Shown here: positions 23,001 to 32,000 of the stretch, one piece after another
Position numbering within the stretch: position 1 is the first letter of the stretch
Layout: each line of letters begins with the position of its first letter
Assembly: GCA_009886115.1 (NCBI GenBank)
Contig: VFJJ01000057.1
Coordinates: 1-58,287, forward strand
DNA length: 58,287 nucleotides
Direction of reading: 5' to 3'
Origin: Actinomycetota bacterium
GTDB lineage: Bacteria; Actinomycetota; Acidimicrobiia; IMCC26256; VFJJ01
Made by a program: the position numbers

Positions 23001-26000
23001 CTCGACCGACCGCACCAGGACCTCGAGGCCCTCGCGCCAGGTGTCGCCCCCGAAGTCGGCGAGACCGGTCGAGCTGCGGGCCCCGTCGACCAGCAACTCG
23101 ATCCGGGATCTCACCGAGGACGCGCCCGGCGAAGTTGGCCAGCTCATGGTCGGTCCTCACTCGTGCGTGGTCGAGGCTCGAGATCGCGGCCGCTCACGGG
23201 AATCGCCCATGGTGACCGCACTCGGGAGCGTAATCATCGCGTCGACCGAGGTGCTCGTGACCGAACCGCCGCGACCGCTGCTGCCCGACGGTACGGTCGC
23301 GCCCCCTGAACCCGCCTGATGTGGGAGCCTTCGGGCTCTCGTGAACAAGGAGCACCACCATGGAAGCTCGCATCGGCATCGCTCCCGACGTGAGCGTCGA
23401 GGTCGCCGAGCTGCTCGCGCTGGCGTCGGCGCCCAACCGGGGGACCCCGGGCACCATCGAGGTGCTCGCCCATCGGCCGCCGATGCTCGGCTCGTTCCTC
23501 ACCTGGGCCCGGGTCCTGGCCCGCGATGGCGTCCTGAGCCGCCACGACCACGAGATCCTGGCTCTCCGGGCGTCGCTCAACTGCCGCTCCCCGTTCGAGT
23601 GGGGCGAGCACCTGATCTTCGCCCGGGGCGCCGGGCTGAGCGACCACGACGTTGACGCCATCGTCGTCGGGCCCGATGCTCCGGGGTGGGAACCGCACGA
23701 GGCGGCCCTGCTGCGTGCCGCCGACCAGCTCCACCACGGGTTCGAGATCGACGATGCCACCTGGGCCGAGCTCGCGGGCCGATACGACGAGGGTCAGCTG
23801 GTCGAGATCGTCTACGTCGTCGGGCAGTACACGATGCTGTCGATGGTGGCCAACGGGTTGCGGGTGTCGGTGCCCGAGACGTTCAGACCGCTGCCACACG
23901 CCTGTGGTCGAGCCGACGCCGCGACCGCGTCGTGACGTGGCGGGACGTCGTCGACCGGGTGATCGAGGGGCCGGTCGTGACGAGCTACACCCGTGTCGGG
24001 TCGGCCGTGAGGAGCCGGCTCGACGAGTGGCGCACGCTCGACTCGTACGATCTCGAGGGCCGGACCGTCGTGCTCACCGGGGCGACGTCGGGCCTGGGTC
24101 TGGCTGCGGCACGACAGCTCGCACGCTGCGGGGCAACCCTGGTGCTCGTCGCCCGCAACCAAGCCAAGGCCGAGGGGGTGGCGAGAGACCTGGTCGATGT
24201 GGGCCTACGAGCTCCGGCGACGCCCCCCGTGGTGATCGTGGCCGATCTCGGATCGCTGGCCGACGTGCGCGCTGCGGCCGAGCAGATCGACGCCCGGTGT
24301 TCGCGCATCGACGCGCTCGTGCACAACGCCGGGACGCTGACTCCTCGACGTGAGCTCACAGCCGACGGGATCGAGTTGACCGTCGCCAGCCAGGTCGTGG
24401 GACCCTTCCTGCTCACCTGCTTGCTGCGCGATCTCCTCGTACGGTCGGCTGCGTCGGCCCCCGCTCGCGTCCTGACCATGTCGTCGGGAGGCATGTACAC
24501 CCAGCCGCTCGACGTGTCACAGCTGGAGATGGCCGCTCCCGGCTATCGCGGCTCGGTCGCGTACGCCAGGGCCAAGCGGGCTCAGGTGACCCTCAACGAG
24601 ATGTGGGGCGAGCGCCTCGCCGGGACGGGCGTGGTGTTCCACGCTCTGCACCCGGGGTGGGCCGACACGCCCGGGGTGCGTGAAGCCCTGCCCCGATTCC
24701 GGGTGATCGTCGGGCCCCTGCTGCGCTCGCCGGCCCAGGGTGCCGACACGCTGGTGTGGTTGGCAGCCGACGACGGAGCTCCGCTGGCCTCGACCGGCGA
24801 CTTCTGGCTCGATCGGCGGCGCCGCTCGATCCACCGTCTGCGATCGACGTGCCGCTCCGACACCCCGGAGGCTCGCCGCGAGCTCTGGGCGTGGTGCGAG
24901 AGCCACAGCGGCTGCACGGCCTGAACCTCGCTGGGCGTCGGCCGAAACAACGCACCGAACGCACGTGATCGCCAACCCGATCGGGTATCTCGCAGACCGC
25001 ACGACCTTCGATGATCTCCGAGCCGGTAGGGCGCCTCGGCCGATAGGGTGCGCCCGGTCGCGGAGCTTCCGTCCGGACGGCGGGCCCCGACCGATGCTGG
25101 CCGACCGGCCGACTGGCCGACGACTCGGGGGGTATCGGCGTGGTCACGAACGTGCTCCATCAACACAGCGGCCCCGGAGTCACCTGGTCGAGGGTCAACA
25201 TGGCCGAGACCGTCGTGGGGGTCCAGACCCCGCTGAGCTGGTGTTGTTGGGACGAATTCGGCGAGCGTGCGTTTCGGATCGGGTACCGCCAGCTCAAGCT
25301 CGTACCCAAGGCGTTCTTGGAGGTCCCGGCGTCGATCGACGAGCAGTTCACCGCGATCTTCTTCGGGCAGGGTGCCTGCAACCTCGACGCATTCCGGGTG
25401 GCGCTCGCCGCCATGCCGGGCAACACCGGCGAGGCCGCAGAGGCAGGATTCTTCTCCTCGGCCGACACGGCGGGGAAGCGCCGCCGCACGATGGAGTCGC
25501 GGTGGCGACAGCTCGTCGTGCTGGTCTGGCTGCCGATGTACGAGCTCGGTGTGGCCCACCGCCTGGCCCGCATCCGCGCCGCCAGTCGAGAGCACTGGCG
25601 GCAGTGTCGGAGCGAGCTGCCGACCGCCGACCGTGCTCTCGCCACACGCCGGCTGCACGAGGCGCTCGGGCAGGCCGCCGACGAGGTCGCGGCCCAGATC
25701 GCCGTCTCGACCTTGGTGGGTATGGCCCACGGTGCGATCCAGGCGCTTCTCGATCGGGTCGGTCGTCGCGATCTCGAGCTGGTGCTGATCGGCGGATACG
25801 GCCACACCGAGGAGCTCGACATCGCCGCGGCCATGTGGACGGTCGCCCGTCAGGGTGGCGATGTCAGGGAGTTCCTTGACGAGCACGGGTTTCACGGTCC
25901 TGCCGAGGGCGAGCTGTCGAGCTCCTCGTGGCGCGAAGAGGCCAGCCCGGTCGAGTCGCTCGTCGAGAGCTTCCGGGGCATGCCGGCCGACGCCGACCCG

Positions 26001-29000: not shown

Positions 29001-32000
29001 AGCGCACACCGATCCCAAGGGGGAACTGGAAGTCACGCAGATCCCCGAGCTTCGGCAGGGGGAGGCTCCACTGGTAGTTCCAGTGGAGGCTGTCCCACGG
29101 GAGGCACCCGGTGTCGTCCCACACCATGACCCCTCCTCCGAAGATGCCCATGTTCGGGCGCACCCAGGGATAGACGTAGGCCTGGATCCGCCGCTCGGGC
29201 ACCGAGATCGAGAACCAGGTCGTCTCGCTCCACAGGGGGTCGTCAGAAGCTGGGGGATGGAAGTTGTCGTCGCTGGCGTCGAGCCGAACTCCCTGGTCGC
29301 CGTGCATCAGATGCGCTCCGATCGCTCGAGGATCTCGACGGATCCCGTCGATCCGTCGATGCGGATCACATCGCCGGTGTGGAGCGTGCGGGTACCCGTC
29401 CGCGTGTTGATGACACAGGGGATACCCACCTCCCGGGCCACGATCGCGCCGTGGCTGAGAGCGCCACCGATGTCGATGACACATCCCGCGGCCACGAGGA
29501 AGTACGGGGCGTAGCTCGGGTCGGTCGTCTCGCACACGAGGATCTCGCCCGGTTCGAGATCGCCCGTGCTCGGGTCGAGCAACACCCGGACGATTCCCTC
29601 GGCCACACCCGGGCTCACGCCCACGCCCGAGACCGCGTCGGCAAGGCCCGCGGGCTCGAACGCTCGCGGCTCGACCATCCCCAGCCACGACTCGGGAAGG
29701 ACGATCGCGAGGTACTCGTCGTAGCGGGCCCGCCGGAACGCCACGAGCTCCGTGACATTGCTGGGCACCTCGGCGGTGAGCAGCTCGTCGACGGTGAGGA
29801 AGAACACGTCCTCGGGATCGTCGAGCAACCCTCGGCGCGCCCATTCGGCCCCGATCACACGGGCCTGGGCTCGCATGGCGTCGAGCATCTGCATCAGGCC
29901 CGCCTTGCCGATCTCGCGCAACGGAACGTAGGTGTGCGTTGCCCGGAGCAGCAGTCGTGCGTAGGGTCGGCGGTACCAGACCAGCGCGGCCACGAGCTCG
30001 CGCTCTGCTGCGATGCGCTCGTCAACCCGTGCCCGTTCGGCGACGCGGGGATCGGTACCGTCGTCCATCGAGCGGAGCGTGCTCACGAGGCGCTCGACCG
30101 GCGCCGGATCGTCGCGCCACGAACGGCTCGACATCTGGCCCTGGGCCGGGCCCTGGAAGCCGCGTCGAGCGAGGAACTCCGCGATGCTCAGCCGGTCGCG
30201 CGACACGGCCCAGAGATCGGCCGTGGTCTCGATCTCGATCGACTCGTGCCCGCCGAAGAGCGTGAGCATGAGATGGCTCTTGTCGACCGAGGCCAAGGTC
30301 TTGCCCAGCTGCTGGAACAGCGGCCCGCACAGAAGCGCGACGTTGGTGTGGGGTCGGGCCATCTGGTGGAAGCGCTCGCGGGCCTCGACGAACCGGCGAA
30401 AGGCTGTGGCTGCGTCGCCGCTCGATTCGGTGATGGCCTGACGCCAGAAACGCTCGTTGTCGGCGTGCACGCGACGCAGCCAGCGTGGCGTCCGGGCGAA
30501 CAGCACCGGGGTCTTGAGGAACACCACCGGATAGCGACGCCGCGAGTTGTTGCTCTCGACACCAGGACGTACCGAACCGAAGTAGTGCTCTTCGAGCGCG
30601 TCGCCCGAGGTGCCCGGTTGCAGGTCGGCCCACTGGCGCGAGAGGTCGACGTTCAGTGCCACCCGTCCGAAGAAGATCGACGACGTGCGGTGGTCGACGT
30701 CGTCGGGAGGCGGAGCGACCGTGGTGGAGAGGATCCCCATGTCGTGGTACGACTGGCGAATCATGCGCTCGTTGGCGTCGTCCCAGTGCGACCAGTTGAG
30801 CGGCGTACTCACCCCGGGGATGCCCTCGGCGATGTTCACGCGCGTCCAGGCGATACCGGGGCCCGAGACCCGATGGAGCGGATCGTTGAGTGCTGCCGGC
30901 TGTGCCATCAGCAGATTCTACGAACTGCTCGCGCTGTGGTCATCTGCGTTACCCGGGTCGGCGATCACCTGCTCCGGCCGCCAGCGATGACGGTTCGGGC
31001 GGGTGCTCACGCCTGGTCTTCGAGCGACCAGTCGTCGGGGAACGGGATGGAGGTGCGGGCGAAGTTCCCGCCGTCGCACGACGGGATGACCACGCCCGAC
31101 ATGTACTCGGAGTCGTCGGAGGCGAGGAACGTCGCCACGCCGGCGTTGTCGCGCAGACGCGGTGGCCGGTTGAGCTTGAGCGGCCCGGGGAACATCGAGC
31201 GGGCGTCCCAGGCCAGCCCGCTCTCGGCCAGTGCGGCCTCCTCGTACGACATCCCGTTCACCTCGGCGTCGGAGGGAAGGGCGAAGTTGACGGCCATGCC
31301 GTGCGCGGGGGCGAGGCCATTGACCCTGATGCCCCAACGGCCGAGGTCGAACGCCATCGACTTCACGAGTGCGATCGCCCCGGCCTTGGCCGAGCAGTAC
31401 GGACCGAAGCCCGGGTAGGCGTTGAGACCACCGGCCGACGTGGTGACGACGATGTTGCCGAAGCCTTGGGGCTTCATCACCCGGGCGGCGTGCTTCCCGC
31501 TGAAGAAGACGCCCTTGTAGACGACGGCGTTGACGGCGTCGAACTGGGCCTCGGTGAACTCCTCGAAGGGGATCGTGCCGAAACCGTCGACGGGCACCCC
31601 GGCGTTGGCGAACATGATGTCGAGGCGGCCATAGGTGTCGACGGCGGCGCGCACCGCGGCCTCGACCTCGGCCTCGATCGTGACGTCGACCTTCATCCCG
31701 ATGGCGACACCGCCGGTGTCGCTGATCGCCTGGGCGACGTCGTGAGCGCGCTTGTCGACCAGGTCGGTGACCACGATCGAGGCGCCCTCCTCGGCCCACC
31801 ACCGGGCGCACTCGCGCCCGAGGCCCGAGCCCGCTCCGGTGATGACGGCGACCTTGTCGGCGAAGCGCCCTGTGCTCGTGTGGGCTGCCATGGTTCCCCC
31901 GGTGTCTCGATGGTGAAGCTGGAAGGTGGTGAACGGACCGGCCCGACGTGTGTCGGCGTGTCGGGTGTGTCGGGTGTGTCGGTGGATCAGCGCGCCGGAA

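Follow-up and report, generated by a model that had tools for sequence, protein, structure and literature searches.

Half-kinase genes in the window

The window, a stretch of 58,287 nucleotides of contig VFJJ01000057.1 (C80) from an Actinomycetota bacterium, contains two genes, A1 and A2, whose products resemble rifampin phosphotransferase (RPH) but have no ATP-grasp domain (Table 1); we refer to them as half-kinases. A domain search returned PF00391, at the C-terminus, as the sole Pfam domain of each protein. The GTG codon at 25140 should be taken as the correct start of A1, because a start at 25200 drops an N-terminal stretch common to A1 and its paralogue. At the position of the essential R666-E667-x-x-K670 of RPH, A1 carries R-V-x-x-K. 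The AlphaFold model of A2 has a pLDDT of 92 and matches RPH (5FBU) over its full length (Foldseek TM 0.70, E 1e-21), and the Rv2047c family (NF004520) is the second-best NCBIfam match of this protein. Against the rifampin models the half-kinases scored 125-129 bits (cut-offs 999 for NF041857 and 1700 for NF000283), and rifampin resistance was rejected as their function for lack of evidence. The DUF7064/DUF7065 protein is a repeated neighbour of half-kinases and a candidate for the next enzyme after them; in the open-licence PMC and bioRxiv literature, no mechanism was found for Rv3169/DUF7064. In the RNA runs, just 6-9% of the sampled words were present, and the contigs were short.

Table 1. 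Half-kinase genes of the window and the genes around them
Feature	Position	Strand	Remarks
Carboxymuconolactone-decarboxylase-family gene and SDR	23360..24924	+	Upstream of A1
Half-kinase A1	25140..26825	+	561 aa; RPH-type acceptor domain and C-terminal swivel-His domain, no ATP-grasp; motif R-V-x-x-K
Swivel phospho-His domain of A1	26517..26729	+	PF00391; GGTLSHGA
SnoaL-like gene and weak DUF1214 gene	26825..28269	+	Downstream of A1, coupled
DUF7064/DUF7065 protein (weakly Rv3169-like)	28336..29307	-	Overlaps the stop codon of A2
Half-kinase A2 (P0001)	29307..30908	-	533 aa; N25, R331-E332-x-x-K335, H486
Swivel phospho-His domain of A2	29343..29555	-	PF00391; GGALSHGA
Short-chain dehydrogenase	31007..31891	-	Upstream of A2, same strand
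Double family III CoA-transferase	31987..34452	-	Upstream of A2

Half-kinases and ATP-grasp domains in the genome

The earlier note had reported five RPH-like proteins without ATP-grasp in this genome, and our searches bear this out with small corrections; two of the five lie in the window. Genome-wide, PF00391 gave eight matches: the five half-kinases, a PEP synthase (C42), a pyruvate phosphate dikinase (PPDK) without ATP-grasp (C158) and a His-loop remnant spanning 36 positions (C148). As had also been claimed, the only PPDK_N-type ATP-grasp is that of the PEP synthase, which carries the single PF01326 match; custom PEPS-type and PPDK-type ATP-grasp profiles found no others in the assembly (224 contigs, 95.6% complete), and the neighbourhoods of all five half-kinases contained no free ATP-grasp partner. 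The SH(A/G)A-type motif attributed to all five stood in part: the His is kept in every copy, but the C60 copy reads CHAA.

The five proteins fall into two subfamilies, A (the two C80 copies and C108) and B (C23 and C60), between which BLASTP alignment was limited to the C-terminal 109-239 residues. Complete equivalents of R666, E667 and K670 are present in the 29307 and C108 copies; the Arg is found in all five, the Glu is replaced in the 25140 and C23 copies, and the Lys is absent in type B. Among 129 aligned half-kinase rows, the acceptor residues R, E and K were kept in 128, 124 and 129, respectively, and the swivel His in all 129. With 8000 candidates scored, 1188 clusters fell into the family at E<=0.001. 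All 119 best non-self homologue clusters were 482-558 aa long and contained PF00391 and PF27448 only, although proteins of up to 933 aa could have entered, in agreement with the previous observation. The half-kinase family is real and widespread, and it lacks a PpsB/HpeI-type partner in the source genome.

A PPDK without ATP-grasp as candidate donor

The gene at C158:5343-7679 encodes a 778-aa PPDK without ATP-grasp that ends in a domain of about 200 aa, here termed the carrier domain. Its match to TIGR01828 starts at profile position 357, and in 115 homologues the median number of residues preceding the swivel domain was 66. The best 120 matches comprised 117 proteins with PF00391 and PF02896 and three shorter ones with PF02896 only, and none contained PF01326. 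A frameshift or a contig edge was rejected as the cause of the truncation, since the gene directly upstream is intact and the architecture recurs in 117 homologues. The swivel His (His126) and the PEP-site residues of the PEP/pyruvate barrel were invariant across 117-120 aligned homologues, and so were the carrier His residues; the swivel His and barrel residues presumably correspond to catalytic residues of PPDK. As judged from sequence, the PEP form of the donor is a conserved family. The protein scored 92 against the VadK model NF004531 (cut-off 456; the L120 donor scores 768) and 158 bits against PTS enzyme I (TIGR01417, cut-off 342), and no HPr was found in the genome.

With its swivel His and PEP-site residues intact, this protein is the best donor candidate in the source genome, as the earlier note had suggested. 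A general role as donor for half-kinases found no support: the PEP form is absent from most genomes with partnerless halves. All seven other genomes found with an ATP-grasp-less PPDK hold half-size copies, and one (G328, of unstated completeness) has just two PF00391 proteins, the PEP-type donor and one half-kinase, with PF01326 absent. In the source genome the donor gene adjoins no half-kinase; among nine loci of the PEP type, the donor was next to a half-kinase in two (L008 and L050) and had none nearby in seven. A final scan for such loci yielded mostly ordinary PPDKs, with one new donor among 80 loci; the remaining 79 ordinary PPDK loci served as the control set, and none contained a carrier or an acceptor. 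A viral scan for the PEP-type donor was empty.

The carrier domain and its fusions

The carrier domain belongs to no known family and consists of a winged helix and a four-helix bundle with three near-invariant His (688, 753 and 760 in P0121 numbering). Its top fold matches were generic bundles and winged helices, and the 50 listed included no HPt- or EIIA-type structure, a result still compatible with kinship to these. The family forms 1797 clusters at 50% identity. In the Atlas the domain matched unannotated clusters only, automatically labelled transcriptional regulator, and no match was obtained there for the 376-aa protein that partners the stand-alone His gene. The domain occurs free or fused to a VadK-type ATP-driven donor, to a half-kinase or to both, and it is also fused to His- and Tyr-phosphatases.

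Among 122 long carrier-containing proteins, 96 had the order ATP-grasp, His and carrier, and 23 had acceptor, His and carrier (pairwise identity 32-90%; two are fragments), while in two (L099 and P0470) acceptor, His, ATP-grasp, His and carrier domains formed a single stop-free chain. Most of the half-carrier fusions checked are without the Glu that RPH cannot lose and stay active. Nine class genomes with long frames were fetched; eight held true carrier fusions, all of the ATP-driven VadK type, whereas the long frame of the ninth (G099) proved to be no fusion, and those of L320 and L322 are none either. In 58 loci with an ATP-grasp-less acceptor, a carrier was found in 14, a VadK-type donor in nine and a free PEPS-type ATP-grasp in three. 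A metagenome scan for type B recovered one partial locus.

Co-occurrence of carrier and half-kinases

It is the carrier domain, which the earlier note did not single out, rather than the PEP-type donor, that tracks the half-kinases as their common denominator. The carrier was present in 58 of 62 mycobacterial genomes with a partnerless half-kinase and in none of the 59 without one, and in 18/19 type A and 16/16 type B class genomes compared with 68/200 overall; these counts rest on cut-offs chosen after the score gaps were seen, on related and therefore non-independent genomes, and on searches that each scored only 7-26 candidates per genome. In Myxococcota, carrier and halves occur in the same three of 151 genomes, and the donor adjoins the halves. 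Where a B-like gene (frame <720 codons) occurs in a genome without the carrier, as it does in five, a classic free ATP-grasp gene always lies alongside. Three closed or near-closed genomes (G062, G083 and G134) combine halves with a carrier encoded by a free gene and with a full PPDK, and nothing else in them joins a PPDK/PEPS-type ATP-grasp to a swivel His; of these, the single-contig G062 and G083 have neither a PEP synthase nor a free ATP-grasp subunit adjacent to the halves.

Exceptions were also observed. Four mycobacterial genomes (G267, G270, G294 and G321) have an Rv2047c-family gene with neither carrier nor VadK, and one genome of the class, G098, possesses a half resembling type A but neither a carrier nor, within 9 kb, a partner. 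In 42 of the 68 carrier-positive class genomes no strong half of type A or B is present; other swivel-His acceptors occur in some of them, and in G063, G074 and G197 none was seen near the carrier. The match in G295 proved to be a full-length RPH-like gene and was reclassed out of the halves.

VadK, Rv1126c and Rv2047c of Mycobacterium tuberculosis

A VadK-type gene was found within the fetched flank in 61 of 80 mycobacterial carrier loci, and we infer from this synteny that the carrier domain is a homologue of Rv1126c. VadK (Rv1127c) autophosphorylates His422 from ATP, and co-expression of Rv1126c raises its solubility; the authors favour a role in regulating the methylcitrate cycle, and their co-immunoprecipitation table lists five proteins, with Rv2047c and Rv1126c not among them (PMC13400623). 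For Rv2047c, a role in the reduction and phosphorylation of mycoketide has been proposed (PMC2443190). In published TnSeq data, rv1126c, rv1127c (vadK), rv2047c and pks12 have a common fitness profile across six iron conditions, a pattern that mmpL5, mmpS5 and rv0455c also follow (PMC7058343). Neither rv2047 nor vadK is mentioned in the main text of a pks12 paper (PMC13622277). In the open-licence PMC and bioRxiv literature, no report was found that ties VadK or Rv1126c to half-kinase acceptors or that describes the PEP-driven donor.

A putative phospho-His relay

Taken together, these observations make it quite likely that donor, carrier and half-kinases are functionally linked, and the half-kinases are probably the terminal, substrate-specific kinases of a common three-part phospho-His relay. 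The C158 PPDK, PTS enzyme I-like after loss of its ATP-grasp, would load the phosphate of PEP onto its swivel His, a step inferred because the residues concerned are intact. The fused domain of about 200 aa would then hand the phosphate on, with a conserved His among its three as the most likely site, or it may act as a docking adaptor; given a functional link, we lean modestly towards a carrier that is itself phosphorylated. The half-kinase would take the phosphate on its own swivel His and pass it to a hydroxyl group of the substrate, a small and probably lipophilic molecule held in the RPH-type acceptor domain; transfer to the substrate is established for the homologues RPH and HpeH (HpeH: PMC12167813). 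One donor could feed several acceptors encoded elsewhere in the genome, and other bacteria would pair this carrier with a VadK-type donor run on ATP or, apparently, with an intact PPDK. A complex prediction for A2 and the carrier domain scored 0.00, gave no answer and weighs neither for nor against this relay. Speaking against it are the lack of linkage between the C158 donor and the halves, the missing Rv2047c and Rv1126c in the VadK co-immunoprecipitation, the MarR-like winged helix of the carrier, the variant acceptor motifs of A1, type B and most half-carrier fusions checked, the exceptions to the co-occurrence, and the further genes that follow the TnSeq pattern.

Some of these points suit other explanations. 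The N-terminal 69 residues of the carrier resemble winged helices of the MarR type (Z 12.3; all 69 residues superposed at rmsd 1.3), and with the Atlas name transcriptional regulator this would fit a phosphorylation-controlled transcription regulator, the halves docking their swivel in trans directly on the PEP barrel or ATP-grasp of the donor, in the manner of HpeH and HpeI; the homology of the half's swivel to that of the donor also suits such docking. However, nearly all invariant carrier residues sit in the helical bundle, outside the winged helix, the domain is fused to the acceptor enzymes and to His- and Tyr-phosphatases, and direct docking leaves the donor's own His, invariant in 117/117 aligned PEP-form homologues, unexplained, so that we regard this explanation as unlikely. 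We give still less weight to the idea that the halves need no partner and act on phosphorylated small molecules as transphosphorylases or phosphatases, with donor and carrier co-occurring for another reason. HpeH alone does shift phosphate between substrates (PMC12167813), and the acceptor motif deviates in one of the window copies and in type B, but neither the half-carrier and triple fusions, nor the mycobacterial pattern (58/62 versus 0/59), nor the free ATP-grasp gene beside halves in carrier-negative genomes would be accounted for. It appears very improbable that the halves belong to an ordinary two-component kinase with its ATP-grasp subunit lost to gaps in the assembly, or that the PEP synthase is their donor: an assembly of 224 contigs at 95.6% completeness, the free partners in 3/58 half loci and the presence of a PEP synthase would permit it, whereas no free ATP-grasp lies near any of the five copies, and the single-contig G062 and G083 have halves with neither a PEP synthase nor a half-adjacent free ATP-grasp.

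The three-part relay can be extended, tentatively, to a PTS-like cytoplasmic system with interchangeable PPDK-derived donors, a new His phosphocarrier and many ATP-independent kinases, in which the M. tuberculosis route from VadK through Rv1126c to Rv2047c might supply the phosphate of phosphomycoketide; a PTS-like relay of this composition is perhaps, with similar reserve, previously undescribed. If true, it would provide a phosphate source for a large mis-annotated enzyme family, a role for an unannotated 200-aa family, and a swivel-His small-molecule kinase system driven by PEP with a single common donor. It also makes two questions testable: what the phosphate acceptor of VadK is, and where the phosphate in mycobacterial phosphomycoketide comes from.

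Comparison with known systems

PTS enzyme I/HPr and the PEP-dependent dihydroxyacetone kinase DhaKLM are PEP-driven His-to-His relays ending on a small molecule. The relay proposed here would differ in its PPDK-derived donor, its carrier other than HPr and its RPH-type acceptors. In Ensifer adhaerens HP1, 3hpd orf9/orf10 (bioRxiv 10.1101/2020.01.08.898148), described as PEP-utilizing mobile-domain and PPDK-like proteins, are both required for one step of catabolism; the likeness is one of description. RPH (5FBU, 5FBT, 5HV1; PMC4844700) and PigC/RedH share with the half-kinases the acceptor and swivel fold (TM 0.70), the catalytic His and, in full only for the 29307 and C108 copies, the R666/E667/K670 equivalents, but the half-kinases have no ATP-grasp and are 19% identical to RPH. 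HpeHI, CreHI and PpsAB (PMC12167813) likewise have a stand-alone acceptor and swivel-His subunit, homologous to RPH and phosphorylated in trans, and they phosphorylate a phenolic hydroxyl at the expense of ATP; the partner there, a free ATP-grasp subunit encoded alongside, is without its own His, whereas the candidate donor of the source genome is unlinked, has its own His, a PEP barrel and an extra carrier domain, and would be common to five acceptors. The Rv2047c family (NF004520), like the halves, is complete in its acceptor and His domains and has no ATP-grasp, but it differs in its N-terminal reductase and its biosynthetic rather than catabolic setting. VadK/Rv1126c (NF004531; PMC13400623), for which the published report names no small-molecule kinase as acceptor, resembles the present system in that a PPDK-derived phospho-His donor is partnered with or fused to a domain of about 200 aa, by synteny the same one; VadK has retained the ATP-grasp and lost the barrel, and the C158 protein is its mirror image.

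Half-kinases without an ATP-grasp domain

Five RPH-like half-kinases (halves) are encoded in the genome, each with an RPH-type acceptor region followed by a C-terminal swivel domain bearing the catalytic His, and a domain search found ATP-grasp in none of them. The earlier note is borne out here, as it is in placing the genome's sole PPDK_N domain on PEP synthase (genome-wide profile searches) and in its account of the best homologue clusters, all 119 non-self ones spanning 482-558 aa and showing the two-domain make-up of the halves. However, the first gene begins at 25140 rather than 25200, and the SH(A/G)A motif ascribed to all five reads CHAA in the C60 copy, although the catalytic His is present throughout.

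Besides the two paralogues in the window, which share 41% identity, a genome-wide search located one copy each on contigs C108, C60 and C23. The predicted model of the 29307 protein (pLDDT 92) matches RPH at TM 0.70. The second transfer of RPH is reported to require R666, E667 and K670 (PMC4844700), and their equivalents are conserved in 128, 124 and 129 of 129 aligned type-A rows, respectively; in the 25140 copy, Val replaces the Glu. The C23 and C60 copies form a second subfamily (type B), in which the acceptor Arg is present and the Lys absent. The C23 copy converges on a pentose-phosphate cluster, an arrangement whose conservation was not seen.

Features of the window, the genome and compared loci
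Feature	Location	Strand
Half-kinase copy, type A	window 25140-26825	+
Half-kinase copy, type A, paralogue of the 25140 copy	window 29307-30908	-
Candidate donor: swivel His, PEP barrel, ~200-aa tail	C158:5343-7679	
Swivel-His loop remnant (~36 profile positions, start codon not evident) flanked by a peptidase gene and a hisG-like gene, the latter convergent; probably a sixth half copy, now decayed	C148:24206-24316	+
Pentose-phosphate cluster: 6-phosphogluconolactonase, His-phosphatase, ROK kinase, zwf, gnd	C23:33118-38086	
Formate-dehydrogenase-like cluster; molybdopterin subunit apparently split into 86-aa and 525-aa frames, possibly by selenocysteine read-through or a break	window 15122-19859	-
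Protein of >2000 aa with BTAD, adenylate-cyclase-like and two AAA/STAND domains; gene cut by contig end	window 2-6256	-
Full-length PPDK of G182, ATP-grasp score 194 vs about 490 bits in neighbours; possibly decaying towards a PEP-only donor	L281:2202-4805	
Third half subfamily beside VadK-carrier fusion	L171:6298-10359	
Third half subfamily beside free ATP-grasp gene	L182:1935-5361	
Stand-alone swivel-His operon	L190:6804-9138	

A candidate donor and a carrier domain

Among the 120 best homologues of the C158 protein (itself counted), 117 carry PF00391 and PF02896, the other three, which are shorter, carry PF02896 only, and none carries PF01326. Neither the swivel His nor the barrel motifs vary in the alignment, the latter presumably being the PEP-binding residues of PPDK. 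The tail, here called the carrier, matched no Pfam or NCBIfam family; it has 1797 relatives at 50% clustering and a fold of a winged helix and a four-helix bundle. Of 109 sequences below 80% identity, all have Q100, S172, H174, H181 and R192, and 107 have H109. In a 60-row tree, with mycobacterial rows reduced to 10, the PEP-fused carriers form a single clade (98/95) set among free carriers of the same class. In Ilumatobacteraceae-like genomes (L041, L055, L059, L061, L065-L085), a free carrier gene immediately precedes genes judged by sequence look to be dapA-like and ribonuclease-J-like.

Long carrier-containing proteins (n = 122) comprise 96 with ATP-grasp, His and carrier, 23 with acceptor, His and carrier, one with His and carrier, and two single chains of acceptor-His-ATP-grasp-His-carrier; these triple fusions have exactly two swivels and one carrier per chain. 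Carriers are also fused with phosphatases (P0375, P0384, P0291), either of the histidine type (an 11-member cluster and one named isolate) or, once, of the tyrosine type. Proteins of ~1500 aa at L126, L127 and L130 carry a single ATP-grasp and, after it, two acceptor-plus-His units in tandem.

Gene neighbourhoods

An ATP-grasp-less acceptor is present in 58 of 75 loci around half homologues, accompanied by a carrier in 14, a VadK-type donor in nine and a free PEPS-type ATP-grasp in three, while neither carrier nor acceptor was found in 79 ordinary PPDK loci used as a control. The PEP-type donor adjoins a half in two of nine loci (L050 and L008, the donor gene of the latter being 5'-incomplete), and the co-occurrence of halves with this donor, proposed previously, held in all seven other genomes checked. 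At locus L321, genes for a polyketide synthase and an MmpL stand together with an Rv2047c-like gene and a fusion of donor and carrier. Close relatives within a third half subfamily, at L171 and L182 in two genomes, represent a natural donor swap.

Within 6 kb of 50 half loci, P450-like proteins (labelled by sequence look and a Pfam hit at C108) were the commonest neighbours (12 loci), SDRs occurred in nine, and two clusters including the window's DUF7064/7065 gene region in seven and five. These neighbours point to hydroxylated lipophilic or aromatic compounds as candidate substrates.

At L190, L311, L312, L314, L286 and L287, an operon pairs a ~118-aa stand-alone swivel-His gene with one for a ~370-aa protein and, in most cases, a DUF7064-like gene; FGGY-kinase-like and FAD-oxidase-like genes lie near. 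The operon adjoins a carrier in four of the six loci and may encode another split acceptor, one with a different fold.

Co-occurrence across genomes

The counts that follow use cut-offs chosen once the searches had been run, where the scores showed a visible gap, and related genomes are not independent of one another. Among 200 class genomes besides this one, the carrier occurs in 68; it accompanies type-A halves (E<=1e-50) in 18 of 19 genomes and type-B halves (E<1e-100) in 16 of 16, one of which (G168) is flagged unpublished. Carrier-less G098 is a counter-example; five carrier-negative genomes with weaker B-like short-frame genes each have an adjacent free ATP-grasp gene. A strong A or B half is absent from 42 of the 68 carrier-positive genomes, which counts against the linkage. 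In four of these the carrier adjoins a gene for a stand-alone swivel His and one for a ~370-aa product, in most cases with a DUF7064-like gene as well, and others contain the third half subfamily, but in G063, G074 and G197 no swivel-His acceptor was seen near the carrier.

Among 121 Mycobacterium genomes, 58 have the carrier, 55 a full Rv2047c-family gene and 16 type-A hits (the one in G295 belongs to a full-length RPH-like gene). Of the 62 acceptor-bearing genomes, 58 have the carrier, versus none of the 59 others. G267, G270, G294 and G321, with an Rv2047c-family gene and neither carrier nor VadK, are counter-evidence. In 151 Myxococcota genomes, a sample whose centre was picked because it has a half, carrier and strong half genes occur in the same three, adjacently; weaker half hits occur in 35 others, in 34 of them only in frames of at least 773 codons (not inspected one by one).

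Published genetics

VadK (Rv1127c) is described as a PPDK without barrel that autophosphorylates at His422 from ATP, and its operon partner Rv1126c as helping its solubility (PMC13400623). Rv2047c is absent from the main text of that paper; the co-IP table names other proteins, a section on lipids deals with PDIM and SL-1 only, and the authors' model is methylcitrate-cycle control. Mycoketide release and phosphorylation have been proposed for Rv2047c (PMC2443190), and members of its family combine reductase, acceptor and His without ATP-grasp. From synteny and described architecture, rather than the H37Rv sequence, we infer Rv1126c to be homologous to the carrier and Rv2047c to belong to NF004520. 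The TnSeq fitness profile common to rv1126c, vadK, rv2047c and pks12 over six iron conditions (PMC7058343) is only suggestive of a link, because siderophore-export genes show the same pattern. In Ensifer, 3-hydroxypyridine conversion is reported to need both a PEP-utilizing and a PPDK-like protein (bioRxiv 2020.01.08.898148).

A possible relay and its relation to split kinases

The analysis shows the architecture of the components, their conserved residues, their fusions and their linkage. Phosphate would pass from PEP to donor His126, then to a carrier His (or onward via carrier docking), to half His486 and finally to a substrate hydroxyl. An intermediate is expected because, when donor and acceptor each bear a His, HpeI-type geometry would leave one of the two idle. 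The halves of the earlier note are real, and their organization is more structured than its donor-plus-half reading; we consider it reasonably probable that they belong to a shared three-part relay, PEP-driven in this genome.

HpeH, CreH and PpsA are reported as acceptor-plus-His subunits dependent on a free ATP-grasp subunit (PMC12167813), so a half protein by itself is not new; the unusual feature is the absent partner. Assembly incompleteness does not account for this: G062 and G083 (single-contig) and G134 (seven contigs) carry halves and full PPDK with no free ATP-grasp subunit adjoining a half; a single weak PF01326 match in G062 lies on an unrelated long protein. HpeH by itself can reportedly exchange phosphate between substrates (PMC12167813). 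The halves would, by analogy, act in the manner of HpeH, but they fall outside the two-component dikinases, as the partner that characterizes these was not found.
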